Origin: Candidatus Woesearchaeota archaeon
GTDB lineage: Archaea; Nanobdellota; Nanobdellia; Woesearchaeales; ARS49
Length of the DNA: 64,000 nucleotides
Direction: 5' to 3'
Assembly: GCA_030750765.1 (NCBI GenBank)
Contig: JASMHM010000004.1
Location: 3,013-67,012 of the forward strand
The number at the start of each line of letters is the position of its first letter. The first letter of the stretch is position 1. The notes under the pieces are model-generated. The model ran no database searches. It worked only from the letters and a program-made list of their open reading frames with translations, and had not been told where the DNA came from. Made by a program: the position numbers and the translations under genes. This document shows, in pieces, positions 18,196 through 61,059 of the stretch.

Positions 18196-19280
18196 GGTTA
18201 CTTATCGCTTCTGACACCAACAGTCCTAGAGTAGATGGGGTGGCGTGCTTCATCCATAACTTAGAACCGCACCTCAAGCAGTTTCATGTAAAAGTGGTCG
18301 CACCAAATTTTGGAGTGCCCACAAACCAGTATCCAGTTACCAAAACAAAATTGTTAAGGATCCGTTTTGGAGATTTTTATTTCAGCTGGCCTGCATGGGG
18401 ACTCATAAAAGAAATGGTAGCAAAGAGTGACGTGGTATTCGCACAAAGTATCGGTCCGGTGGGCGGGTTGGCGATACTTGCTGCTCACAAGCAAAAAAAG
18501 CCGGTTGTGCTGTACGCTCACGTCATGGATTGGGAGTTGGCAGGCTCGGCAGTGAAAAGATTCAAGGGTCTAACGCGTTTTGTGGTGAAGATTGCTGCAC
18601 GCTGGCTGTACAAGAAGTGCACAAGGATCATCGCGGCAAGCTCCAAAAGCGCAGACATGATAGGAAGTATTGGCGTAGACACGCCAAAAACAGTCATTCC
18701 TCTTGGTATTGATACACAACGCTTCAAACCAAGCGACAAGAACGTTGCAAAGAAAAAACTAGGCTTGCAAGGAAAGCGCGTTATTGGCTTTGTTGGAAGA
18801 TTAGCACATGAGAAAGATCTTCCTACGTTGTATGCTGCGTTCAAGGAAGCACAAAAGAAGGTTCCGAACATGAAGTTGTTAATCGTAGGTACTGGAATCA
18901 CAAACATCCTTCCTGAAGATGATGACGTGCGCTTAGCAGGACCGCAGACAGACATCGTTCCTTACCTACAAGCGATGGACCTGTTCGTTTTGCCTAGTCT
19001 TACGGAAACAAACAGTCTTGCAACCATGGAAGCCATGTCTTGTGCGCTACCTGTTATCGTTACGCCAGTAGGAAGTATAGGGGATTACGTTGTTGAGGCA
19101 AAGAACGGCTTCTTTTTCCCTCGCCAAGACGTCAAGGCGTTGACAGAACTCATGGTTACGTTGTTATCCAGTCCTGCAACCCGGCTGAAGATCGGTAGGG
19201 CTGCTCGAGAGAGTATGGTTCAGGACAGACAGTTCGATAAGACTGCTAAAGAGATCGTTACTGTGTTGAAAGAGGCTTAG
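18192..19280 (+). CDS. GT4-family glycosyltransferase
   Basis: ETNSLATMEAMSCALPVIVTPVGSIGDYV (E-x7-E GT4 signature). 4-nt overlap with the deacetylase gene, so a likely operon. Stop TAG. Confidence 0.85.
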   Translation: MRLLIASDTNSPRVDGVACFIHNLEPHLKQFHVKVVAPNFGVPTNQYPVTKTKLLRIRFGDFYFSWPAWGLIKEMVAKSDVVFAQSIGPVGGLAILAAHKQKKPVVLYAHVMDWELAGSAVKRFKGLTRFVVKIAARWLYKKCTRIIAASSKSADMIGSIGVDTPKTVIPLGIDTQRFKPSDKNVAKKKLGLQGKRVIGFVGRLAHEKDLPTLYAAFKEAQKKVPNMKLLIVGTGITNILPEDDDVRLAGPQTDIVPYLQAMDLFVLPSLTETNSLATMEAMSCALPVIVTPVGSIGDYVVEAKNGFFFPRQDVKALTELMVTLLSSPATRLKIGRAARESMVQDRQFDKTAKEIVTVLKEA

Positions 19281-22200
19281 ACCTTCAAGCTAACAACGTT
19301 ACTTCTTCCTGCGTCAGGGTTCATGCTGACGCCGTAGAGGATGTCTGCTTGGTTTATGAGGGCGTCATTGTGCGACACGATGATGTACTGTGCGCTTTCG
19401 CCGTATTGGTGGATGAGTTTGGCTAGCTTGTCGCTATTTGCTTTATCTAGGGCTGCGTCCACCTCGTCCATGACGTAGAAGGTGGCTGGATCGTGCTCTT
19501 GGATGGCAAATAAGAAGCTTAGCGCAGTCATGGTCTTCTCTCCTCCAGACAAAGAACGAATGTCTAAGTGTTTGCCTTGACTTACCTCTACGCGCATGCT
19601 CATGCCGGCCTCGAAGGGTTCTTCTCTGCTGCCTATGGTTAGTGTTGCCGTTCTTCCTTTTGGGTTGAGTTCTGAGAAGATCCTTTGGAAGTGTTCATTG
19701 ATGCTGTCAAAGGTTCCCAAGAACATTCTTGCCTTGTTCACTTCTATGTCTTGCATGAGTTCGGTGACGCTTTCTTTTTCCTTAAGAAGAACTTCTTTCT
19801 TGTCTTGTAGGACGGTGAACTCTTTTTCTGCGATGTCATACACATCTAGACTTCTGAGATTGACGTTGCCCACACCTGCGAGCTTTCTCTCGCCCTCATT
19901 GATTAACTTTTGTAGGACTTCTTCGTTCTTGTTATGGTCTAACTCTACTCCGGCATACTGTGCCATGGTTTCGTTGATGGTGGCCATCTCTGCTGCCACG
20001 CGTGTTTCTTCTACAGAAATAGCATTTTCTTGCATCTCTTCTCTTCTGCTCTCTTCTTCGACCATGAGCTGGCTTCTTTCTTTTTGATTAATATCGTGGG
20101 TGAACTTGTCGCGTTTGGCAAACATGTCTTTGAACTGTACGTTCGCTTTTGCTTGTTCTTTCTCCTTAGTACGGAGTTCCTCTTCTTGACTTTTGATGCC
20201 GTCGGTAAGCGTGGTTATTTTCTCCTTGTGTGCCTTTTCTTCTTGTTGCATTTTCGCAAGGAGTTCCTTGTTTTTTTGTACGTCTACTCCAATAACTTCT
20301 GAGATCTTTACTTCTAGACCGTGGAGCTCGGTTTTTACTTTGGATAGGTTTTCTTGCAAGTTTTGTTTTTGTTGTTCGAAGGCGTGGAGTTCTGCTAGCA
20401 CTCCAGGATTGCGTATTTGTTTGGTTTGTTCGCGTAGTTTTTGCCTTTTGGTCATGTGTTGGGTTATCGTAGTGGTGTGGTCGTCAATATCGTCTTTGAC
20501 CTTGTCTAGGCCTTTGTCGAGTTCTTTTTGTTTGTCTTGGAGTTGTTGTTTGTAGTCTTTGCCTTCTTCTTCGTCTACCACATGGAGGCTTTTTTCGAGT
20601 TTGATGATTTCTCCTTCTAGTGTTGCTTTTTCTTGTCGTAGTTCAGTTATTCTTTGGTCTGTTATCGCTCGGCTTTTCTCTAGCATGTGTTCTTTTTCTT
20701 CCAACCCAACAAGATCTTTGCTTGTTTTTTCTATCTTGCCTGTGAGATCTTTCTCTTTGAAGGCGCTTCTGCGTCTTCGGAAGCCGCCGGTCATGCTGCC
20801 AGCTTTTTCTAGGAGGTCTCCTTGTAAGGTAACCATCCTGTATTTTCCTTGACCTATTTTTTTGGCCTCTTCAAGGTCTGCCACCACTAGGGTGTTGGCT
20901 AGCACGAACTGAAAGATGGATTGGTAGCGTGGATCGTAGGTGACGTGGTCTATTGCTCTTTTGATGCCAGGTGGTGGCGCCTCTATTTTGGGCGGCTTGA
21001 TCTTGTTTAGGGGTAGGAAGGTAGCCACGCCTAGTTTTCTTTCTCGTAGGAAGCGTATGCAGTTCTTGGCTATGCTGTCTGTCTCCACCACAATACTAGT
21101 GAGTCGTGCTCCTGCTGCCACTTCTAAGGCTATGGTGTGTTTGCCCTCTACTTCGCCTAATTCTCCTACCGTGCCTATGACACCTTGGACTTGTTCTTTG
21201 ATTTTCTTGGCTAAAACATCCACATTTGCTGCGCGGAACTCTGCTTGCTTCACTTCTAAGGCTCCTAATTCTTGTTTGGCTTCTTGGACTTTTTGTTTGA
21301 TCTTGCCTAGCTCGCCTGCTTCTTTGCTGTCCCGATTTAGGAGTTCGTTTAATTCTTTGACGGCTCGTTTGAAGGTCTCTTTTTGTGTTTTGAGGCTTGC
21401 CAGCTCTTCTTTGTGTTTGGAGAGCATGTCTTTGTAGGCTTCTTCTTGCTGTTCGATGGTTTGGATTTGGTATTCTGCTCGATCCTTGTCTCGTAGCGTT
21501 TGTTGTTGCGTCTCTCGAAGTTCGTGCACTATTGTTTGTAGTTTTTCGAGTTCTTTGTCGATCTCTTCTATCTGGATTTCTGTTTCGTGCGCAGAGTCTA
21601 GACCTTTTGCTTTCTTGAACTTTTCGAGCTTGTCTTCTGCGGCCTTGAGTTGGAGTGCTACCTCGTCTCTTTGTCCTTCTTTGGCTTTTTTCTCTGTCTC
21701 TACTTCTTGGGTTCGGTTTTCTGAGCTTTTGAAGGTCTCTTTGATCTCTTGTTGTTGTTTACTCAGTTTTGTTATGGTTTCGCGTAACCCTTGGATGCGT
21801 TCTTTGTTGGTGGCTAGCCCTACTTTCAACACTTCTATGCGTTGTTGTAGCTCTGCTGCCTCCACCTCGCCTTTGCTTTCGATGTCTTTATTGAGGACGT
21901 TGAGCTGTTCTTTGGTGATGCTGATCTCATTCCCTATCTTGCTTGCCTTTTCTCGTAGTTCTCCTATTTTCTTCTGTATGCCCTGACTTCGCTCTTTCAA
22001 CTTTGTTCTACTCTTCTCTTTGGTGTTGTATTGCTTATGCAAAAGACTGGCTTTGAACACTTTGACCTTGTCAGCAGTATCTTTGTAGATGATGGCTTGA
22101 TCTCTCTCCTTTTTGAGTTCTCTAAGATGTCCTTGTCGTTCTTTCAATACTATCTCTGCTTCGTTCAATCTTTGGTCTACTTTGGCTAATTCCTTTATGG

Positions 22201-22759
22201 CTTGTAGTTTTTTCTCTTCATAAACGCCGATGCCGGCTATTTCCTCAACAATCTGTCTCCGGTCTACGGGATTCATCTCTACTAGTCTAGTGATGTCTCC
22301 TTGCATGATGATGTTGTAGCCGTCTGGGTTTATTTTTGCGGTTCTCAACAATTCTAGCACTTCTTGTCTTGTCACCGTACCATTGTTGATCTTGTACTTG
22401 CTTGCTCCATCCTTTCTGACCGCTCTTGTTACTTTGATTTCCTTTTCTTCAAAGGGGAAGAACTTTTGTTCGTTGTCAAAGAAGATGCTTACCTCTGCGC
22501 TGTTGGCGGGTTGTTTAGTTTTGCCCCCATTATAGATGAGGTGGGCGCTTTTTTCTGCGCGTAACTGTTTTGAGCTGCTTTTGCCTAGCACAAAACAGAT
22601 GGCGTCTGCTACATTGCTCTTTCCAGATCCATTAGGTCCTAGGACGACAGAGAACTTCTTGTCAAACACTAGTTCGGTGCGCTTGGCAAAGCTTTTGAAG
22701 CCTTCCATCACGAGTTTGGTTATTCTCGTGCCTTTAAGTTCTTGAGCCTGTGCTTCCAC
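19277..22759 (-). CDS. smc: chromosome segregation protein SMC
   Basis: N-terminal Walker A GPNGSGKSN, long coiled coils, hinge, C-terminal LSGGEKT…DEVDAALD; 1160 aa. Confidence 0.9.
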   Translation of the reverse strand: MEAQAQELKGTRITKLVMEGFKSFAKRTELVFDKKFSVVLGPNGSGKSNVADAICFVLGKSSSKQLRAEKSAHLIYNGGKTKQPANSAEVSIFFDNEQKFFPFEEKEIKVTRAVRKDGASKYKINNGTVTRQEVLELLRTAKINPDGYNIIMQGDITRLVEMNPVDRRQIVEEIAGIGVYEEKKLQAIKELAKVDQRLNEAEIVLKERQGHLRELKKERDQAIIYKDTADKVKVFKASLLHKQYNTKEKSRTKLKERSQGIQKKIGELREKASKIGNEISITKEQLNVLNKDIESKGEVEAAELQQRIEVLKVGLATNKERIQGLRETITKLSKQQQEIKETFKSSENRTQEVETEKKAKEGQRDEVALQLKAAEDKLEKFKKAKGLDSAHETEIQIEEIDKELEKLQTIVHELRETQQQTLRDKDRAEYQIQTIEQQEEAYKDMLSKHKEELASLKTQKETFKRAVKELNELLNRDSKEAGELGKIKQKVQEAKQELGALEVKQAEFRAANVDVLAKKIKEQVQGVIGTVGELGEVEGKHTIALEVAAGARLTSIVVETDSIAKNCIRFLRERKLGVATFLPLNKIKPPKIEAPPPGIKRAIDHVTYDPRYQSIFQFVLANTLVVADLEEAKKIGQGKYRMVTLQGDLLEKAGSMTGGFRRRRSAFKEKDLTGKIEKTSKDLVGLEEKEHMLEKSRAITDQRITELRQEKATLEGEIIKLEKSLHVVDEEEGKDYKQQLQDKQKELDKGLDKVKDDIDDHTTTITQHMTKRQKLREQTKQIRNPGVLAELHAFEQQKQNLQENLSKVKTELHGLEVKISEVIGVDVQKNKELLAKMQQEEKAHKEKITTLTDGIKSQEEELRTKEKEQAKANVQFKDMFAKRDKFTHDINQKERSQLMVEEESRREEMQENAISVEETRVAAEMATINETMAQYAGVELDHNKNEEVLQKLINEGERKLAGVGNVNLRSLDVYDIAEKEFTVLQDKKEVLLKEKESVTELMQDIEVNKARMFLGTFDSINEHFQRIFSELNPKGRTATLTIGSREEPFEAGMSMRVEVSQGKHLDIRSLSGGEKTMTALSFLFAIQEHDPATFYVMDEVDAALDKANSDKLAKLIHQYGESAQYIIVSHNDALINQADILYGVSMNPDAGRSNVVSLKV

Positions 22760-37911: not shown

Positions 37912-38115
37912 TCACATGTCGCCCTTTCCTCGGTGCCAGCCAAGGTGTTCTGAGAGTTTAGAGTTGTTACGATAGGTAAGTCCCACGTTGACGACAAGTA
38001 AGGCGGTCATGACTTCCTCAAATCCTAGACTTCCCCCAACTGCTTTGCGCAATACCTCTATGGTTATCCAAATCACAAAGGCCAAAAACAGCCAATACAC
38101 GATCGAATGTTTCAT
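37912..38115 (-). CDS. small two-TM membrane protein
   Basis: Start set at MKHSIVYW, downstream of the listed ORF start. Confidence 0.4.
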   Translation of the reverse strand: MKHSIVYWLFLAFVIWITIEVLRKAVGGSLGFEEVMTALLVVNVGLTYRNNSKLSEHLGWHRGKGDM

Positions 38116-38256
38116 GTCAGCATCAACCTCATAAACCACAGTATGAGTGCGATCAATAATGCAAGCATCGCCCAGTCTAGAGGTTCCTTTGGCATGCTAC
38201 GCTCATCGCAAGAATCTTTTATATGCGTTTCGAATCCCTTCCGGAAGATTTCCGGA

Positions 38257-39321
38257 TTATCCGACGGTAGCAAACCCTTCACTCGTCGCTTTCCTCACGT
38301 CAAACGCTTCTGGACCTGCGGCAATCATGCCTTTACTGGTGAATCTTAGTTGGGGCACGGTTACGCCTTCGATGTCTGCAGTCGTAAGCCACTCTTGGAG
38401 GGGTTGGTCTTGCTGCAAGCCTGTGATTATCAGTTTTGCAGCGTCATAAGCTGGCGCTGCACTAGGTCCTGTGGGTGGTTGGCCGTGTTTTTTTGTGAAA
38501 CGCTCAACAAACCCTTTGTGGGCTTCTGTTTCCTTGGGGTACGGGTGGTATACGCCTCCTTGATATGCTAGCTGCCATTCTAGCATGGTTTCGCTCTCTG
38601 TTTGGTGGCCTAAGAAGAGAGGAATATCTAACCCGAGCTCTTGTGCTTGTTTCATGAACGGGAGCAAGGTTTCATCTGACGTAAAGGCAACGTACACAGC
38701 ATCGGCTTGTTCCTTGATCTTTAGCAATATCGTTCTGAAGTCTTGGACTTGGTTGCTGGCAGCAAAGATTTCGAGTTCTTCTGCTGTCTCCTTTTCGAAC
38801 AAATCTTTTTGGAAGGTGGCCCATGTGTTGAGGTTGTACACGACTGCTATGTTGTCATGTCCTTGGCTTGTTACAAAAGAAGATATTTTTTGTACTGCTG
38901 AGATATCGCTATACCACGTCGAGAACAAGTAGGGGTAGTTTACTGTTGCTTCTACTCCTTCGGATATGCTGGGGGAGATCATGACCTTGCCATGTCGTTG
39001 TGCCAAGGGCGCAACAGCTGCGGTGTCTTCATCCCACGTAGGTCCTATGATGGCTGCTACGTTATCTAAGGTGATGAGTTTGGTGGCTGCGGTTACGGCA
39101 ACCGTTTGGGTGGTGTGAGTGTCTTCAGGGATCAACAAGAAATTGCCCCCTTCTGCATTAGCTTCTTCGATGGCTAGTTGTACGCTCTTCAGTTCATCTG
39201 CTCCCCAACTCTCACCTCCTCCAGTAAGCGCAAACAATCCTCCTATCTTTATCGTAGGCTCTGTGGTCATGTGGCCTGTTGCACAAGCCACCAAAAATAA
39301 GAGGAGAAATGCCTGTTTCAT
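38257..39321 (-). CDS. periplasmic-type substrate-binding protein, PBP type 1 (LivJ/branched-chain amino-acid family), solo
   Basis: Signal/lipobox-like N-terminus (LLFLVACATG), IKIGGLFALTG… typical of Leu/Ile/Val-binding proteins. No permease or ATPase nearby. Confidence 0.75.
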   Translation of the reverse strand: MKQAFLLLFLVACATGHMTTEPTIKIGGLFALTGGGESWGADELKSVQLAIEEANAEGGNFLLIPEDTHTTQTVAVTAATKLITLDNVAAIIGPTWDEDTAAVAPLAQRHGKVMISPSISEGVEATVNYPYLFSTWYSDISAVQKISSFVTSQGHDNIAVVYNLNTWATFQKDLFEKETAEELEIFAASNQVQDFRTILLKIKEQADAVYVAFTSDETLLPFMKQAQELGLDIPLFLGHQTESETMLEWQLAYQGGVYHPYPKETEAHKGFVERFTKKHGQPPTGPSAAPAYDAAKLIITGLQQDQPLQEWLTTADIEGVTVPQLRFTSKGMIAAGPEAFDVRKATSEGFATVG

Positions 39322-39416
39322 GTACTGTTGAAGCCACAATACACTTTAATAGATTATTAACCCTGTACAGGGTATAGAACAATAACATTTTTATGTGAGC
39401 AGATTCTAAGAGGGGT

Positions 39417-40163
39417 ATGTATGAACGTTCGCTGCAGAAGATTGGCCTTACGTCAGGCGAGGCCAAGGTGTATGAAGCGTTACTCGTCACCGGACCCTCC
39501 ACCGTAGGCCCTATTGTCAAAGAATCAGGGGTTGCGTACTCGAATGTGTATGAAATTCTCCAAAGACTGATCGAAAAGGGCATTGTAAGTTTGATAACCA
39601 AAGAGAAAACAAAGCATTTTCACGCCGTAGAGCCCACGCGTTTGAAAGAATACGTGGCAAAACAAGCCGCCGCAGTCCAACAGAGTCAAAACGTGCTGAA
39701 AGATGTGCTGCCCTCCCTCAAAAACCTTGCAGGTGAGGCCAGCCCACTCCATGTCGAGGTTTTTGTGGGTATGAAAGGGCTGAAAACTGCGTACGAACTC
39801 CTGGTGGCAGGAGGAAAGAAAGGGGATAAGGGTCAGTTTGTTTATGTATACAACAAAAAATACTACAAAGCAACCGAACGCTTCTACGTCGATCTTTGGA
39901 AGGAGATTCGTACCTCTCCCATTCGCTGGGAGGGGATTTGCAATGAGGAGTACCGTCCAACCGTGCTGGGTCAGAAGAAGGAAAAAACATTAGAACAACG
40001 CTACGTAGATCTTCCTCTTGCAGGAAACATAGACTTGTTCAAAGATCGCTTACTAATAGAGATCTGGGCTGACAAACCTTTAGGCATTCTCATTACATCC
40101 CAAGAAGTGGCAGACAATTTTAGAACGTACTTTGATGGACTGTGGAAGGTTTCTAAGCCTTAA
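39417..40163 (+). CDS. TrmB-family transcriptional regulator
   Basis: N-terminal wHTH LTSGEAKVYEALLVTGPSTVGPIVKESGVAYSNVYEILQRLIEKGIV plus TrmB-like C-domain. TATA CATTTTTAT 23 bp upstream. Confidence 0.75.
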   Translation: MYERSLQKIGLTSGEAKVYEALLVTGPSTVGPIVKESGVAYSNVYEILQRLIEKGIVSLITKEKTKHFHAVEPTRLKEYVAKQAAAVQQSQNVLKDVLPSLKNLAGEASPLHVEVFVGMKGLKTAYELLVAGGKKGDKGQFVYVYNKKYYKATERFYVDLWKEIRTSPIRWEGICNEEYRPTVLGQKKEKTLEQRYVDLPLAGNIDLFKDRLLIEIWADKPLGILITSQEVADNFRTYFDGLWKVSKP

Positions 40164-55497: not shown

Positions 55498-55755
55498 ATG
55501 GAAGCACGCATAGCAAGTTTTAGAGGTTCACGGTTGACCCGATATGACAATCACATGATCATCCATGTGGACACATCCAAGAACCGAGAGGATGCTGAAA
55601 AACTCGTGGGCAAGTCCGTCACCTGGGAAAGCACAAGCAAAAAACAGTTGAAAGGAAAGATTGCGGGTGCTCATGGCAACAACGGACGCGTACGAGCTAT
55701 TTTTGAGAGTGGCATGCCTGGCCAGAGTTTAGGCGCAGTAGTCAAGATTGAATAG
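55498..55755 (+). CDS. rpl35ae: 50S ribosomal protein L35Ae
   Basis: …GKIAGAHGNNGRVRAIFESGMPGQSLGAVVKIE matches the L35Ae C-terminal signature (…RAHGNSGxVRAKF…G…V). AGCTTTATAAAACC box upstream. Confidence 0.8.
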   Translation: MEARIASFRGSRLTRYDNHMIIHVDTSKNREDAEKLVGKSVTWESTSKKQLKGKIAGAHGNNGRVRAIFESGMPGQSLGAVVKIE

Positions 55756-56866
55756 GTGCTAGCCTCACCAATGTTGGAAGAATTAAACACCCCATAGCGG
55801 TAGCCCTTGGACACCTAAGAATCTGAGAAAAGGCGCCTAGCGCAGTCGCTGTGGCTAGAACCAACAACCCTCTATGCCCGCTGAGCAAGAACGCAGTAAC
55901 TCCTAACCCAACAATGATGAGCGTGTTCATCCTTTTGTAAGGAATCTTGGGAAGAACCTGTTGGGCAAACCTGGCCGTGACCAAAGTAAACAAGGCAGCA
56001 ACGCCTGCTGCAACAAGCATCACGCCCCCAAGCCAAAGCAAGTGTGGCACGCCTATCCTTACCAAGCTAAGTATGGCCTCTGCGCTCCCACTCCTCGCCT
56101 TTTCTAGCACCGCCAGCATGACGGGGGTTAGCGCTTGGTCTGCTGCGTTGATGCTTGACACGAGCGTAAGGTGCCCTGCCTGGAACGGAAACAGGGCTGC
56201 AGTGTGCGAGGTGCTCATGGCAGGAAGCAAGTTCATCACCAACCCTCCAAGAACGCCGAGCAAGACGAATCTGTACTGTGGTCGGTCAAACAACGCAGTT
56301 GTTTGGTCAGGAACGCTTGTCTCCGTGGTCAACAACAACGTAGAAGTGCCAAACAAGCCGGTAAGCAAGGCAAACAATGGTTGGGCGGTAGAATCTAACA
56401 CTATGAGGCCAAGAAGACCGGATAACAAGAAAATAAGAACGCCCTTGCCGGTGGTGGCCAGCCATACGCCGGTTAACCCAACAAGAACATACCAGGTGAG
56501 GGGTTTTATGGCAGCGTATGATGTTGGAAGGATCCACGCAAGCAAGGGAGTGAGAAGGATTGTACAAAGTATTGCTAGAACGCTCGCTCTGACTGCGATC
56601 ACGACTGCTTCATAACCTCGCCCTTGGAGCAACATCTTGTGAGCAGGCATGACGGCTAGCGCTGTCTCAGAACTTGCCGCGCCAAGATAGGTGGAGGGAA
56701 TGGCATCTGTGATTGTGTGGGCGATGGCTGCGGCAAGCAAGAAAGGCACCAAGAACGTTCTTGGCAGCATTGTGCTGAGCAAGATGGCTGCAACTAGGTT
56801 TGTGTGCAGGCCAGGAATCATTCCTGTAATACTTCCTACTAGCGATCCTAACAATGCCGCAATCAT
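55742..56866 (-). CDS. polytopic membrane protein (TctA/DUF112-like?)
   Basis: 374 aa, more than 10 TM helices; GSITGMIPGLH motif. Confidence 0.55.
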   Translation of the reverse strand: MIAALLGSLVGSITGMIPGLHTNLVAAILLSTMLPRTFLVPFLLAAAIAHTITDAIPSTYLGAASSETALAVMPAHKMLLQGRGYEAVVIAVRASVLAILCTILLTPLLAWILPTSYAAIKPLTWYVLVGLTGVWLATTGKGVLIFLLSGLLGLIVLDSTAQPLFALLTGLFGTSTLLLTTETSVPDQTTALFDRPQYRFVLLGVLGGLVMNLLPAMSTSHTAALFPFQAGHLTLVSSINAADQALTPVMLAVLEKARSGSAEAILSLVRIGVPHLLWLGGVMLVAAGVAALFTLVTARFAQQVLPKIPYKRMNTLIIVGLGVTAFLLSGHRGLLVLATATALGAFSQILRCPRATAMGCLILPTLVRLAPIQS

Positions 56867-57123
56867 TCGATCACGAACTCCACCCTGCCTTTGTATGATT
56901 GCAGTCTTCCTGTGTACATGCCGCTGCCCTCTTCTAACTTTTTATCAAAGCTAACCACCGGAATCCTTGTCTGCAGCATGCCCTTGGATACCTTGCCGTG
57001 CTGCACGTTGGTGATGATTCCTATCGCGCTGATCGTGTTTGGAGGGAGGTCTGGGCTTGTCACAAGCAACAAGAGCATTCCCACAACAAAGCATCCGAGC
57101 GAGAGCCAGACGATGTTTTCCAT
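56863..57123 (-). CDS. small membrane protein, hypothetical
   Basis: 86 aa. 4-nt overlap with the downstream membrane-protein gene. Confidence 0.5.
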   Translation of the reverse strand: MENIVWLSLGCFVVGMLLLLVTSPDLPPNTISAIGIITNVQHGKVSKGMLQTRIPVVSFDKKLEEGSGMYTGRLQSYKGRVEFVIE

Positions 57124-57168
57124 GTCCGTCCTGATTTTTTTTGTTTTATATGCGCTCCCCCATGTTTC

Positions 57169-57183
57169 CCGGAAAGTTTCCGG
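57169..57183. promoter_or_regulatory. near-palindromic operator CCGGAAAGTTTCCGG (copy 1) upstream of the wHTH gene at 57267; a perfect palindrome GGCCCATATGGGCC (57211-57224) and TTTATATAT TATA follow
   Basis: 19-bp TTTCCCGGAAAGTTTCCGG is identical to the copy at 59008-59026; a third variant lies at 57893-57906. Confidence 0.5.
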
Positions 57184-57266
57184 TGACCTATTGCCCCAGT
57201 TCCCATAAACGGCCCATATGGGCCGGAAAGGAAAACTTTATATATTCTCGTTGCATTGCTCATAGA

Positions 57267-57575
57267 ATGAAACAATCTTTGTTTTTGAAAGCATACGGCA
57301 ACAGCCCTGTGCTGAGGGTGCTGGACTTCTTTGTCACGTTTCAAGAATACGATTATTCTATGAAGGACATTGCCAAAAACTCAAGAGTGGGGTACACCAC
57401 GCTGAAATTATTCTGGAAGAGTCTGGTGGACAGAAAAATAATGAGCCACACTAGGGTGGTAGGAAAGGCCAAGATGTATAAGCTAAACACAACAAACCCG
57501 GAAGTAAAAGAATTCATCAAGCTGTACTGGCTCGTCGTTGATAAGGCGACTCCTAAGCTCAAGGTTAGCGCTTGA
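57267..57575 (+). CDS. winged-helix transcriptional regulator (102 aa)
   Basis: Start at MKQSLF, after the TATA. …YSMKDIAKNSRVGYTTLKLFWKSLVDRKIMSHTRVVGKAKMYKLN. Confidence 0.6.
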   Translation: MKQSLFLKAYGNSPVLRVLDFFVTFQEYDYSMKDIAKNSRVGYTTLKLFWKSLVDRKIMSHTRVVGKAKMYKLNTTNPEVKEFIKLYWLVVDKATPKLKVSA

Positions 57576-57828
57576 TCTGGTCGATCTTATCCCTACGTTC
57601 TGTATTTAGATAAAACTTGTGTCCGTACTTTTTGCTTTTCTTACACAGAATTCCTTGTCTGACTAGTGCGTCTGCCACTGCCATAATCTTTCCTTTTTCC
57701 TCTGCAGGGAACCCATCGCTTAACTCATCTTGATACAAGGACCCTTTGCCCCAACAACCGAGTTTGAATAGTTTCCTCACCAACGTCTTGGCAATGCGAA
57801 TATAATCTCCCCTAGAAATCTTTACCAT
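57565..57828 (-). CDS. small wHTH-like DNA-binding protein
   Basis: 87 aa; …KIMAVADALVRQGILCKKSKKYGHKFYL. Confidence 0.5.
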   Translation of the reverse strand: MVKISRGDYIRIAKTLVRKLFKLGCWGKGSLYQDELSDGFPAEEKGKIMAVADALVRQGILCKKSKKYGHKFYLNTERRDKIDQIKR

Positions 57829-57870
57829 GCCAGATTCACCCCTTGCTTCTTAATATGCTTCACGCGACAA

Positions 57871-57906
57871 TGTCCAGTGTCCAGTGGCGAAACCGGAAAG
57901 TTTCCG
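57871..57906. promoter_or_regulatory. divergent intergenic control region: ORB-like TGTCCAGTGTCCAGTGG(CGAAAC) followed by CCGGAAAGTTTCCG
   Basis: 57871-57889 is the exact reverse complement of 35009-35027. Operator-like copy 2 lies at 57893-57906. Confidence 0.45.
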
Positions 57907-57982
57907 AATCTCTGACGAGGTGCTCATGTTTATAACTGGTGCGTGACAGATAGTTACTAGGGGATTTTTCAAGCCTGAGCTA

Positions 57983-58993
57983 TTGCAAACAGGGGATAAG
58001 GTAGCAGTTATCTCTCCTTCTTGGGGAGGCCCTAGCATTTTTCCACATATTTACGAGTTAGGTTTAGAGGCTCTCACTTCGTTGGGTTTAGACGTAGTAG
58101 AATTTCCAACGGCAAGGGCAGAGGCCGATTATTTGTACCGGAATCCCGAAGTAAGAGCTGCAGATGTCAATAATGCTTTTGAGGATGCTGAAATCAAAGC
58201 CATATTTGCTGGCATTGGCGGAGATGACTCTGTTAGGATATTGCCTTTCTTGGACCCAAAAATCATACGCAACAGCCCAAAAGTTATTATGGGATACTCG
58301 GACACGGCTACCTTGCTGACTTATTGCAATCAATTAGGTTTGGTTACCTTCAACGGTCCCTCCGTGATGGCGGGATTTTCCCAGTGGAATGCTATACCTG
58401 AGTTTAGACAACACATCAAAGAATTCATGTTTGAATCACACGACGAGTATGTGTACCCGCAACATGATCGTTACACTGAAGGACATCCTGATTGGAGAAA
58501 ACAAGAAAACGCCGGAAAAGTAAATCCCTGGAAGGATGGTGAGGATTGGCAGTGGCTACAGGGCACGTCTGTGGTAGGAGGCCAGCTATATGGTGGTTGT
58601 ATCGAGGTCCTTGAGTTCATGAAAGAAACTGAGTTCTGGCCATCCCAAGAATTTTGGAACGGCAAGATTCTCTTTCTAGAGACCTCCGAAGAAAAACCTG
58701 GACCTGAGCAGGTCAAGTGGATGATGAGGAATTATGGTATGCAGGGCGTTTATGATAGAATTACAGGAATCTTGGTGGGAAGAGCAAGAGATTATTCTGA
58801 TGCGGAAAAAACGCAACTTTATGCTAATCTTGTGGATGTTGTTTCTGTTGAGTTCGGTAGAAGTGATTTGCCTATCGTTGCTAACATGGGCTTTGGTCAC
58901 ACCGATCCGCAATTTGTTTTACCTTTAGGGGTGAAAGCGGAGATTGATTGCGCAAAGAGAACACTAAAGCTTCTCGAGTCTCCTTTCAGATAA
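57983..58993 (+). CDS. LD-carboxypeptidase (peptidase S66, MccF-like)
   Basis: GDKVAVISPSWGG N-terminus and S66-like layout. TTG start; TATA CATGTTTATAACTGG upstream. Confidence 0.75.
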   Translation: MQTGDKVAVISPSWGGPSIFPHIYELGLEALTSLGLDVVEFPTARAEADYLYRNPEVRAADVNNAFEDAEIKAIFAGIGGDDSVRILPFLDPKIIRNSPKVIMGYSDTATLLTYCNQLGLVTFNGPSVMAGFSQWNAIPEFRQHIKEFMFESHDEYVYPQHDRYTEGHPDWRKQENAGKVNPWKDGEDWQWLQGTSVVGGQLYGGCIEVLEFMKETEFWPSQEFWNGKILFLETSEEKPGPEQVKWMMRNYGMQGVYDRITGILVGRARDYSDAEKTQLYANLVDVVSVEFGRSDLPIVANMGFGHTDPQFVLPLGVKAEIDCAKRTLKLLESPFR

Positions 58994-59011
58994 GCGTTCT
59001 GCCACTATTTC

Positions 59012-59026
59012 CCGGAAAGTTTCCGG
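59012..59026. promoter_or_regulatory. CCGGAAAGTTTCCGG operator-like palindrome (copy 3), 10 bp upstream of the Cas4-like gene TATA box
   Basis: Identical 19-mer to copy 1. Confidence 0.5.
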
Positions 59027-59070
59027 CGTGATTCCATAAAGCATATAAAGCCAGACAACAACGTAAAAGC

Positions 59071-59877
59071 ATGCTTATTCCGATGCGGGTGCAGAGCCCC
59101 TCAAGTATCAAGACCTACCAGCAATGCCCTAGAAAATATTACTATAACTATATCGCAAAGCTTCCTACGCTACCCAACATCCACCAGCTAAGGGGAAACA
59201 TCGTCCACTCGGTCCTAGAACGATTCTTCCAGCTTGACGTGGGCGAGGTGACCAAAGAAGACTTTCGTCAGGTGCTCCATGTAAAAATGCAAGAACTACT
59301 TGTTGAGTGCTGGAAGGAAAAAGAAGGGGCGCTAGAAAAGCTAGGGTTGGAGGATGAGAACATAGTGATGTTCTTTGAGGAAAGCATGCACATGTTAGAC
59401 AACTGGCTAAAACAATTATTTTCCAAGCTAGAAAAAAGTCCGCTACCTTTTGATGCTGCCTGGAAGACACAGCTTCCGTTAGAGCAGGAAGAGCAGTACG
59501 TCAGCGAACGGTATGGTGTTCGCGGATTCATCGACGTTGTCGAGCAGGTGGGAACAGAGATTCGCGTGATGGACTACAAGACTGACAAGCGCCCAGATGT
59601 TGAGAAGCACAAGCTGCAACTAGCCATCTATGCATTGTTGTATCAAGAGAAGCACGGTACGCTTCCTACCAAGGCAGGAATCTACTTTTTGAAAGGGGAC
59701 GAGGCGCATGTAGAGGTTGACGAGGCCCTGGTCGAGTTTGCCAAGCGCGAGGTAGAGCTCATCCACCAGAGCACCCAGAGCAAGGAAAAAGTTGACTATC
59801 CCAAACAGATCAGTCCTCTGTGCAAATGGAGAACGGGTCAGTGCGATTTCTACGACACGTGCCTTGGCGAGGATTAG
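59071..59877 (+). CDS. Cas4-like / RecB-family PD-(D/E)XK nuclease with 4-Cys cluster (DUF83-type), orphan
   Basis: N-terminal …YQQCPRKYYY…, core …GFIDVVEQ…VMDYKTDK…, C-terminal CKWRTGQCDFYDTC (1+3 Cys arrangement of Cas4/AddB Fe-S nucleases). AAGCATATAAAGCC box upstream. Confidence 0.65.
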   Translation: MLIPMRVQSPSSIKTYQQCPRKYYYNYIAKLPTLPNIHQLRGNIVHSVLERFFQLDVGEVTKEDFRQVLHVKMQELLVECWKEKEGALEKLGLEDENIVMFFEESMHMLDNWLKQLFSKLEKSPLPFDAAWKTQLPLEQEEQYVSERYGVRGFIDVVEQVGTEIRVMDYKTDKRPDVEKHKLQLAIYALLYQEKHGTLPTKAGIYFLKGDEAHVEVDEALVEFAKREVELIHQSTQSKEKVDYPKQISPLCKWRTGQCDFYDTCLGED

Positions 59878-60614
59878 TAAGGTACTGTTTTTTCGTGTTC
59901 GCGCACCAGATTCGCTGCATCTTCGTTTTGGCAAGAATACAACGCAGCCCAGGCGTGTGACCTGGTGGGCAGCATGGCCTGAAGTAATCCGGGCAGTCGC
60001 CCGTTAAAGTTAACGACTCTGTCTGCGAACTTGTCAAAGAGAGCAGGTTCTCGCAACAGGTCGCCATTCCAGCGATCTAGGGTTTTTCCGGTGGTTTCCA
60101 CAATCTTCGGAAACACCGCTCGGATCTGCGACCAAGGAGCGTCTGCCACCTCGGCTCCCCTTCCAGGGCCGGTGTACAGCCAACCGTTCACTCTTTCAAT
60201 GGAGCTGACCGCGCGTCGCAAGTTTTCAGGTTGATCGCTAGAGATGTCGATGCCTCTTGCGTCCTTCTGGACTTGGGAACAAATCCACAATGTGTATGGG
60301 TGGGAGTTTTGGCGTATGCTTTCGTCTCGTAGGGCTTCCTCGGTCCAGCAATTCCTAGGGACATAATCTTTTCTGCCTGGATTTTTCCACATCGCCTTTC
60401 GAAGGCCGTACATGGCGTGGGCGAACGCAGGGTCTATCGGGCAGTCTTCTGTCAGATCGAGTTCGGGATCCACGTCTAAGAATCTTGTTGCGCTGTCTAG
60501 TATTCTTCTCTTGTCGTGTGCTTGAAAAGGATTTTTCCAGAAGTGAGAGGCGTCTATATTACTAAGAAATTGTGCAACCTCTGCTAGGGTTGCGTCGTCT
60601 CCTCTCACTGCCAT
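59874..60614 (-). CDS. hypothetical protein (possibly DUF2461-like)
   Basis: 246-aa ORF. 4-nt convergent overlap with the Cas4-like gene. Confidence 0.5.
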   Translation of the reverse strand: MAVRGDDATLAEVAQFLSNIDASHFWKNPFQAHDKRRILDSATRFLDVDPELDLTEDCPIDPAFAHAMYGLRKAMWKNPGRKDYVPRNCWTEEALRDESIRQNSHPYTLWICSQVQKDARGIDISSDQPENLRRAVSSIERVNGWLYTGPGRGAEVADAPWSQIRAVFPKIVETTGKTLDRWNGDLLREPALFDKFADRVVNFNGRLPGLLQAMLPTRSHAWAALYSCQNEDAANLVREHEKTVPY

Positions 60615-60672: not shown

Positions 60673-61059
60673 TTACTTTACGAGTACGCCGCTGATCGTG
60701 CCATCTTGCCCGGGTCGGGAGGTTACTTTCATCTTTCCCTTATCCGTATCGATAACTGCACCTTTAGTGATGATGTTTCTTCGTACGTAGTTTCTATTTG
60801 CAGCATTTTCTGCTACGGCTTTGATCTTGACCTTTTCGTATTTCTTCGTTTTAGGATCGTACAGGTTGGCAACGTCTGATCGCTGCAATTTTGCTTTGAT
60901 AAAACTGGCACCCTTCACTTTGACCAGGGTGGTTTTTGTCTTCCCTATCGTTGTGTTGGCGTTCTCTCTACCTAGCTCGTGGTGCTTTTTCTTTCGAGCT
61001 TCGAAGTATCTTCCGCCAGAGGCTTTTCTGCCCTGCATCGCGCGGTGTGATTGTGCCAT
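60673..61059 (-). CDS. rps8e: 30S ribosomal protein S8e
   Basis: …KASGGRYFEARKKKHHELGR…VYDPKTKKYEKVKIKAVAENAANRNYVRRNIITKGAVIDT…KVTSRPGQDGTISGVLV matches S8e. GCTTTATAAACCC box about 25 bp upstream. Confidence 0.85.
   Translation of the reverse strand: MAQSHRAMQGRKASGGRYFEARKKKHHELGRENANTTIGKTKTTLVKVKGASFIKAKLQRSDVANLYDPKTKKYEKVKIKAVAENAANRNYVRRNIITKGAVIDTDKGKMKVTSRPGQDGTISGVLVK

Follow-up and report, generated by a model that had tools for sequence, protein, structure and literature searches.

Why should one palindrome recur beside the genes of two small winged helix-turn-helix (wHTH) proteins, an LD-carboxypeptidase and a Cas4-like nuclease in the genome of a marine DPANN archaeon? The question arises from a 64,000-nucleotide (nt) stretch of a Candidatus Woesearchaeota genome (hereafter the window), in which a preliminary description had taken three copies of the palindrome as the mark of a small regulon made of these four genes. 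The locus itself is unchanged in TARA and Joint Genome Institute (JGI) metagenomes. We found the same palindrome, at the same spacing, before many unrelated genes of the lineage; hence, the repeats are probably copies of a lineage-wide upstream promoter element, here called the CCGGAA box, rather than the operators of a private four-gene regulon. The box is predicted to be the site of a homodimeric factor that contacts the pre-initiation complex.

Sequence reading and pattern searches found the 19-mer TTTCCCGGAAAGTTTCCGG exactly where it had been placed, at 57165-57183 and 59008-59026, and the same holds for a shorter palindrome at 57211-57224. The half-site variant given for 57893 is present as CCGGAAAGTTTCCGA, with one mismatch to the 15-mer, although it extends to 57907 and not to 57906. 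The motif is better written CCGGAA-N3-TTCCGG, a 15-bp palindrome of 6-3-6 form (up to 7-1-7), and a fourth copy with perfect arms, CCGGAAGATTTCCGG, lies 19 kb off, outside the interval first described. The four sites are as follows.

57165-57183, minus strand: box copy 1, core CCGGAAAGTTTCCGG at 57169-83, at the promoter of the operon for an 86-aa membrane protein and a TctA-family protein (86-aa/TctA operon)
57893-57907, no strand assigned: box copy 2, CCGGAAAGTTTCCGA, left direct repeat of an indel that carries the carboxypeptidase (S66) gene
59008-59026, plus strand: box copy 3, core at 59012-26, promoter element of the Cas4-like gene and right direct repeat of the S66 indel
38241-38255, minus strand: box copy 4, CCGGAAGATTTCCGG, upstream of a gene for a 27-aa membrane peptide

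With up to three mismatches, the 15-mer matches 12 places on the two strands of the window against 1.53 expected, a count reached by none of 100 shuffles, and perfect CCGGAA-N3-TTCCGG is found three times, against no occurrence in 30 first-order Markov simulations. A census of the window, in which all four box sites stand upstream of TATA boxes, found no recurrent 6-3-6 palindrome arm other than CCGGAA. A position weight matrix built from other genomes detected no degenerate extra sites in the window, and copy 1 is its sole full-score match there (39.5 against a null maximum of 8.8).

Each copy was read toward the genes on either side of it, with its distance to the TATA box and from there to the start codon. 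On the minus strand, copy 1 reads CCGGAAACTTTCCGG, a 16-nt spacer (N16), the TATA box CATATAAA, 21 nt and the ATG of the 86-aa/TctA operon, which is the canonical geometry. Copy 3 reads CCGGAAAGTTTCCGG, N15, CATATAAA, 21 nt and the ATG of the Cas4-like gene, and copy 4, again on the minus strand, CCGGAAATCTTCCGG, N15, CATATAAA (38225-38218), 22 nt and the ATG at 38195. Copy 3 is an upstream element of the Cas4-like promoter, as the preliminary description had held, but its end is 14 nt, not 10 bp, from GCATATAAA (59041-49). Copy 1 had been assigned to the wHTH1 gene, whose TATA box is 53 nt away (57184-57236); it fits the minus-strand operon, with 15 nt to GCATATAAAA (57153-57144, minus). Copy 2 does lie between the wHTH2 and S66 genes, but at 35 nt from the wHTH2 TATA box and 21 nt from that of S66 it has the canonical geometry to neither. 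We propose that the box serves three promoters in the window: those of the 86-aa/TctA operon (copy 1), the Cas4-like gene (copy 3) and the membrane-peptide gene at 38.2 kb (copy 4).

This geometry recurs across the lineage. Scanning one genome per species with the pattern CCGGAANNNTTCCGGN{11,18}CATATAAA gave 56 matches; all 27 of those in 26 archaeal-type (DPANN-type) loci have a spacer of exactly 16, and the 29 bacterial matches are spread over spacers of 11-17. By the labels of the sequence records, which are used for taxa throughout, the 26 loci comprise 11 Woesearchaeota, 4 Nanoarchaeia, 8 "uncultured Methanosarcinales" third-party annotation (TPA) metagenome-assembled genomes (MAGs) and 3 loci from one "Binatia" MAG. 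The same gene families are present in all of them, and in nearly all the start codon lies about 22 nt past the TATA box. In a metagenome scan allowing spacers of 10-22, 34 of 61 matches fell at 16 (binomial P = 3e-22). Viral contigs gave one chance-type match, with a spacer of 22, and the box is not virus-associated. Thirteen further box-like sites in archaeal loci had not been selected for a TATA box; in eight, a TATA-like box (CATAAAAA, CATTTAAA, CATATAAA, CACTTAAA or a close TATA variant) stands at N16 or close to it, in five of them at exactly N16, and four of these five are followed by an ATG 22 nt later. Among 43 non-redundant sites, the ATG is 20-24 nt past the TATA box in 34 and exactly 22 nt in 22.

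Outside the window, 37 non-redundant sites with perfect arms give the consensus CCGGAAA.cTTCCGG-A-ttTt-N5-GaAA..-CATATAAA-g-N21-ATG. The box lies 16 bp (rarely 15) from the TATA box, with its centre about 25 bp from the TATA box and at about -54 from the start codon. Only the box, the T-tract, the GAAA resembling a transcription factor B (TFB) recognition element (BRE) and the TATA box are conserved; flanks and remaining spacer positions vary from promoter to promoter, a pattern of selection rather than copying. The centre triplet is biased in its orientation toward the gene (ATC 15, ACT 7, GAT 2). Box-bearing loci range from 29 to 58% GC, and classified sites are divided between divergent (17/32) and tandem (15/32) intergenic regions, copy 1 (divergent by inspection, unclassified in the 32) and the Cas4 box of a sister species being further divergent cases. 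No variant palindrome recurs at the same promoter position in relatives that have no box.

The genes behind the box belong to about a dozen unrelated families in many Woesearchaeota/Nanoarchaeia MAGs. The commonest targets are proteins of ~100 aa with an N-terminal membrane segment and a C-terminal coiled coil (13 loci); the others include PIN, MazE/AbrB, HicB (with HicA nearby), DUF4258, Peptidase_S8 (subtilase) and an HTH_24/AsnC-like protein. Most targets are small membrane proteins and toxin-antitoxin genes. Rad51/RadA has the box in one MAG (L049) and an XPD-like helicase in one species (L029/L122); the XPD-like gene in L014 has none. The Cas4-like gene carries it in three lineages, and since an orthologue only 47% identical, in a MAG of 37% GC (L074), also has a box at N16, the link between nuclease and box is old.

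We also observed a recurrent synteny in three loci (L024, L048 and L091), where a box-driven small membrane gene is followed by FtsZ and a conserved 131-142-aa protein without Pfam or PDB match. A MazE-PIN pair comes next in L048 and L091, with a box just upstream in L048 and none detected there in L091.

The box would be bound by a putative homodimeric DNA-binding protein. The preliminary description had likewise spoken of a dimeric operator, and the palindrome is indeed promoter-associated and behaves, as far as its sequence tells, like the site of a dimeric factor, but it is not confined to this locus. Its rigid phasing to the positions of the TATA-binding protein (TBP) and TFB suggests direct contact of the factor with the pre-initiation complex, and the TATA-to-ATG distance, with the TATA box centred ~26 nt before the ATG, points by established archaeal promoter geometry to leaderless transcripts. 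Since the site is wholly upstream of BRE/TATA, activation by recruitment of TBP/TFB has a slight edge over repression.

Several points weigh against this interpretation. The core promoters are near consensus, which is unusual for activator-dependent ones, so the box may serve for repression or insulation instead. Both collection scans required CATATAAA, and the sample is therefore biased toward strong TATA boxes; many of the sites are orthologous (small transmembrane family), so the independent cases are fewer than the 37 sites suggest. In tandem cases, the box and T-tract lie 0-35 nt past the upstream stop codon (the box is 18 nt past it at copy 3 and 1 nt at copy 4), and an added role at the 3' end may exist. 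Copy 2 and the promoters of wHTH1 and wHTH2 are off the canonical geometry, the leaderless architecture and any regulatory effect are things that we infer, and all candidates considered as binders of the box (wHTH1, wHTH2, TrmB-like and AsnC-like proteins, below) are unsupported.

Among the alternatives, the one that survives best is the private regulon itself, in which wHTH1 and/or wHTH2 would bind the palindrome and co-regulate their own genes, the S66 peptidase and the Cas4-like nuclease. We consider it doubtful, for reasons that lie partly in the history of the locus and partly in the wHTH pair. The features concerned, with their neighbours, are listed below.

55742-56866, minus strand: TctA-family membrane protein (Pfam TctA, E 4e-34)
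56863-57123, minus strand: 86-aa membrane protein, 4-nt overlap with TctA
57144-57153, minus strand: TATA box GCATATAAAA of the 86-aa/TctA operon
57211-57244, plus strand: wHTH1 promoter, with palindrome GGCCCATATGGGCC (57211-24), BRE-like GAAAAC and TATA box TTTATATA (57237-44)
57267-57575, plus strand: wHTH1, no Pfam match
57565-57828, minus strand: wHTH2, no Pfam match
57850-57885, minus strand: wHTH2 promoter, with TATA box GCATATTAAG (57859-57850) and the tandem GTCCAGT GTCCAGT (57872-85)
57908-59011, plus strand: 1.1-kb S66 block, absent from the sister species, bounded by box direct repeats (14-15 bp)
57929-35, plus strand: S66 TATA box, TTTATAA
57983-58993, plus strand: Peptidase_S66 (LD-carboxypeptidase), N and C domains (E 2e-29 and 2e-28), TTG start
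59041-59049, plus strand: TATA box GCATATAAA of the Cas4-like gene
59071-59877, plus strand: PD-(D/E)XK/Cas4-like nuclease (PDDEXK_1, Dna2 and Cas_Cas4, E 2e-28, 5e-13 and 3.5e-7)
59874-60614, minus strand: 246-aa protein, no family
60673-61059, minus strand: ribosomal protein S8e (Pfam)

The gene calls of the preliminary description hold, both in the domain matches of the S66 and PD-(D/E)XK/Cas4 proteins and in the winged-helix models of the two small proteins. The nuclease also matches TIGR00372 (NCBIfam) at 71 bits, and this stand-alone Cas4/RecB-like protein carries the N-terminal and C-terminal cysteines of its family. The 4-nt overlap of their open reading frames (ORFs) indicates that the 86-aa and TctA genes form one operon (55742..57123), and an inverted repeat of the window (I15) is simply the TATA box of this operon paired with the TATA region of the Cas4-like gene.

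In the closest relative found, a sister species (loci L018-L020), the genes come in the same order but S66 is missing; identities are 88% for wHTH1, 92% for wHTH2, 96% for the Cas4-like protein, 94% for TctA and 98% for the 86-aa protein. It keeps the 86-aa/TctA operon, with the orthologue of copy 1 at L018 7903-17, and its boxes at the 86-aa and Cas4-like promoters have the same spacing but the centre triplet ACC instead of AGT. Its wHTH2/Cas4 intergenic region has one box, CCGGAAACCTTCCGG, which agrees with copy 2 in its left flank and with copy 3 in its right flank. Synteny without S66 and a single hybrid box thus identify the S66 block as an indel bounded by two box copies. Copy 2 owes its existence to this block, which separates two copies where the sister species has one box, and the same indel gave rise to the apparent co-regulation of S66 and Cas4, a combination that the preliminary description had put forward and that we do not uphold. 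The block was either inserted, the box being duplicated in the process, or lost from the sister species when two boxes recombined.

Acquisition of S66 in the lineage of the window is weakly favoured over deletion in the sister species. The next S66 homologues are ~57-63% identical and mostly come, by name, from bacteria of the Candidate Phyla Radiation (CPR), and the gene has the lowest GC content at third codon positions (GC3) among the local genes. Homology to them extends eight codons 5' of the TTG start (RGFFKPELL against MGFIKPERL in the relatives), and AGG (57959-61) stands in place of the homologues' ATG 23 nt after the gene's own TTTATAA, the expected position of a leaderless start. 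By this comparison the gene is one that has lost its ancestral start, the ORF being otherwise intact, and the AGG state is fixed in 10 metagenome contigs of the same species. An S66 homologue in L140 has an archaeal-type leaderless promoter and no box, so the link between S66 and the box is not old.

Copies 1-3 have the centre AGT on the plus strand, and copies 1 and 3 are alike over 19 nt; the centre of copy 4 is GAT. The common triplet and part of the flanks in the clustered copies probably reflect local duplication or gene conversion. Co-evolution of a transcription factor with its operator was discarded as the source of the triplet, given that copy 4 differs and that the identity holds on the plus strand, not in promoter orientation. 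Derivation of the copies from an ancestral divergent wHTH2-wHTH1 intergenic region was discarded as well, relatives so arranged having no box there. Three related 18-mers, CCCAT-N5-CCGGAAAG, were seen at 57159-57176, 57213-57230 and 59002-59019 (78-83% identical); they connect a half-site beside the wHTH1 BRE with the left half of copies 1 and 3, a likeness that may be fortuitous or left over from a local duplication.

The arguments for a private regulon concern the wHTH pair. Both proteins give confident winged-helix models (pLDDT 92.7 and 91.4), with fold matches of the ArsR/SmtB/MarR type and to F93 of Sulfolobus turreted icosahedral virus and ArsR-like proteins, and the pair stands between box copies both in the window and in the sister species. 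wHTH1 (~102-110 aa) and wHTH2 (~87 aa, its GCWGKGS motif invariant) are kept together in Woesearchaeota as a two-gene module, with three arrangements: convergent with an 11-nt overlap in the window (57267-57828); divergent in L011 (5598-6333), L017 (5625-6327), L021 (7618-8324) and L055 (2098-2756); and a tandem operon in L141 (8001-8710). The wHTH1 proteins of L011-L017, L021 and L141 are 60-78% identical to that of the window and have different neighbours. Conservation of the whole four-gene neighbourhood, which the preliminary description had suggested as a check, does not extend beyond this pair, the Cas4-like gene being absent from the neighbourhood beyond the sister species.

The module and the box nevertheless part company elsewhere. 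No box was found within 6-8 kb of wHTH1 in L011, L014, L017, L021 or L141, all of which but L014 also have wHTH2. The single adjacency is that of L055, whose wHTH1 and wHTH2 (34 and 31% identical) lie ~15 nt upstream of a box-driven small gene, an event expected by chance at ~0.2 when locus size is set against genome size (an estimate). In addition, S66 is missing at the sister locus, the box-to-TATA distances of the wHTH1, wHTH2 and S66 promoters are non-canonical, and there are boxes 19 kb off in the window and before unrelated genes in many MAGs, dozens of sites with the same TATA spacing.

The promoters of the wHTH genes carry conserved elements of another kind. The palindrome and BRE/TATA are kept upstream of wHTH1 in L018, L011 and L021; GGCCCATATGGGCC of the window becomes GACCCCTATGGGTC in the sister species (G2A and C13T, a compensatory arm change) and GTACCATATAGTAC in L021, and the GTCCAGT tandem repeat, located between copy 2 and the wHTH2 TATA box, is identical in the sister species. 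The wHTH1-promoter palindrome, distinct from the box, is likely an auto- or cross-regulatory operator of the wHTH pair.

Candidates for the binding factor were therefore considered one by one. wHTH1 and wHTH2 were rejected, because their own promoters have other repeats (the CCCATATGGG-type palindrome and the GTCCAGT pair) and five wHTH1 lineages are boxless nearby. In five lineages a TrmB-like regulator is encoded a few kb or less from a box, a proximity for which its synteny with a binding-protein gene accounts, and promoters of TrmB-like genes carry other palindromes (ACCCTGTACAGGGT in the window; TTGTTGTAC-N5-GTACAACAA in other MAGs). The AsnC-like protein is directly downstream of a box in L137, a single case without a homologue in the window, and the nearness of the conserved 131-142-aa protein to boxes is explained by FtsZ synteny.

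The surroundings of copy 4 show the synteny of the TrmB-like and binding-protein genes. The 27-aa peptide gene is followed by a 75-aa membrane ORF (37912-38139), and the order TrmB-like, Peripla_BP_6, box, small gene is also found in L075/L105. In L076, the box is ~600 nt beyond the TrmB-like/binding-protein pair, and L027/L106 have binding protein, box and small gene. In the window, the TrmB-like gene (39417-40163) is divergent from the Peripla_BP_6 binding-protein gene (38257-39339), and their 77-bp intergenic region contains the perfect palindrome ACCCTGTACAGGGT. Farther off, the AT skew is strong (-0.54 at 20-22 kb) where a 1160-aa minus-strand ORF lies (19277-22759).

Another explanation is that genes are gained and lost at the palindrome, whose main role would be that of a recombination site or cassette boundary and whose association with promoters would be secondary; we regard this as improbable. 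It would account for the S66 block flanked by 14-15-bp direct repeats of the box, with one hybrid copy and the outer flanks in the sister species, and for the centre triplet that the clustered copies of one genome have in common (ACC in the sister species, AGT in the window), which suggests sequence exchange. Toxin-antitoxin and small accessory genes are frequent among the targets, and in the sister species an additional MazE-PIN toxin-antitoxin pair stands between the Cas4-like and 246-aa genes (L018 9489-10151), absent from the window, again with a box, TCGGAAATTTTCCGG (plus strand), at the canonical distance from GCATATAAA. However, this insertion has a single box and not a flanking pair, and short direct repeats cause deletions and duplications without being dedicated sites. 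Domain searches of neighbouring genes found no recombinase or integrase gene within ~5 kb, and a 3-bp spacer between 6-bp arms is unlike the core sites of tyrosine recombinases. The box is also present at core genes (RadA, XPD-like helicase), and the fixed 16 bp to the TATA box and 22 nt to the ATG would be left unexplained.

Still less probable is an action of the palindrome in RNA, whether it belonged to a small RNA or formed a hairpin or terminator behind the upstream gene. CCGGAA and UUCCGG can pair as a 6-7-bp stem, A-TTTT directly follows the box in the lineage consensus, and the box is close behind an upstream stop codon in 15 tandem cases, but the 17 classified sites in divergent regions are places where no transcript need end. 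No copy in the window is followed by a T-run or appears terminator-like in a terminator scan, fold energies are like those of shuffles (z = -0.3 to -0.8), and there is no Rfam match. A terminator would need no exact phasing to the next TATA box. Finally, although three copies in 1.9 kb, two of them identical over 19 nt, might recall a dispersed repeat such as a miniature inverted-repeat transposable element (MITE) or a chance cluster, this can hardly be credited: the shuffle and Markov comparisons exclude chance, viral contigs gave just the one chance-type match, similarity stops within about 15-25 nt without terminal inverted repeats or an element body, and, in place of the even density or MITE that the preliminary description had named as fatal to its view, the 64 kb hold four copies only, all upstream of TATA boxes.

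DPANN archaea are uncultivated and have small genomes with few recognisable regulators, and to our knowledge their transcription regulation is essentially uncharted. Neither the box motif nor any relevant DPANN promoter element turned up in a literature search, the one apparent match being 16S sequence text. If the CCGGAA box is a lineage-wide promoter element, its invariant TATA phasing permits regulon prediction from sequence alone, and the box can serve as bait for finding the factor and as a test case for the geometry between a factor and TBP/TFB. If it is merely a common strong-promoter module, its value would be mostly practical, for the annotation of promoters and start codons in Woesearchaeota MAGs. 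In both cases, the locus is a warning for annotation: the apparent operon logic of peptidase and nuclease is a by-product of a gene-sized indel between copies of a promoter element.

Comparison with known systems begins with the SOS response. LexA boxes overlap the promoter and repress, and the LexA regulon includes RecA, repair helicase and nuclease genes, toxin-antitoxin modules and small membrane peptides. We know of no LexA in archaea. The targets of the CCGGAA box are alike in gene content, with RadA for RecA, and by this analogy the box could mark a Woesearchaeota-wide stress or DNA-damage-type regulon, a functional analogue of the bacterial SOS system under one putative factor docking at a fixed distance from TBP/TFB. 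RadA, the XPD-like helicase, the Cas4/RecB-like nuclease, toxin-antitoxin modules and small membrane proteins would then be controlled together, in what would be the first defined regulon in this uncultivated DPANN group. The analogy is one of gene content only, and we think it unlikely to hold: unlike in the LexA regulon, RadA and XPD are each boxed in one sampled lineage, and most targets are small membrane proteins.

Archaeal regulators with short inverted repeats offer a second comparison. SurR (GTT-N3-AAC) and TrmB/TrmBL1 are winged-helix dimers on N3- or N5-spaced inverted repeats, and regulators of this type activate from upstream of BRE/TATA and repress from downstream. The box is a similar short inverted repeat of different sequence, but its spacing is rigid, and we know of no single rigid spacing for SurR and TrmB sites. 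The 6-3-6 form with its A/T-leaning centre also resembles the 13-15-bp sites of the Lrp/feast-famine regulatory protein (FFRP) type.

A third parallel comes from the UV response of Sulfolobales, in which a hexanucleotide, 5'-A(N)TTTC-3', is found at -39 to -44 in many promoters, including those of DNA-transfer and repair genes, and has been proposed to aid TFB recruitment (PMC5817253). Like it, the box is conserved in its lineage and lies just upstream of BRE in many promoters, and the boxes of the window contain ACTTTC/AGTTTC. The resemblance is coincidental, however, since the commonest box centre, ATC, does not yield A(N)TTTC, and the Sulfolobales element is non-palindromic, 6 nt long, closer to BRE and UV-linked.

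The closest likeness is to archaeal upstream activating sequences (UAS). Activators that recruit TBP or TFB include Ptr2 of the Lrp family in Methanocaldococcus jannaschii and TFB-RF1 and EarA in Pyrococcus, and HhpR, with a UAS and an imperfect palindrome, is a further archaeal activator system (PMC11705074). Such sites are discrete, often palindromic and placed entirely upstream of BRE/TATA. The box is alike in all of this, as would suit a factor that binds as a dimer or oligomer and aids TBP/TFB assembly. It differs in that its core promoters look strong rather than weak, activation by the box being a prediction only, and in that the UAS described so far each belong to a single organism and to one promoter or a few, whereas the spacing of the box is invariant throughout the lineage and across unrelated genes. 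The CCGGAA box thus looks like a previously undescribed operator or upstream promoter element. What sets it apart is how rigid its spacing is and how widely it occurs in a DPANN lineage.

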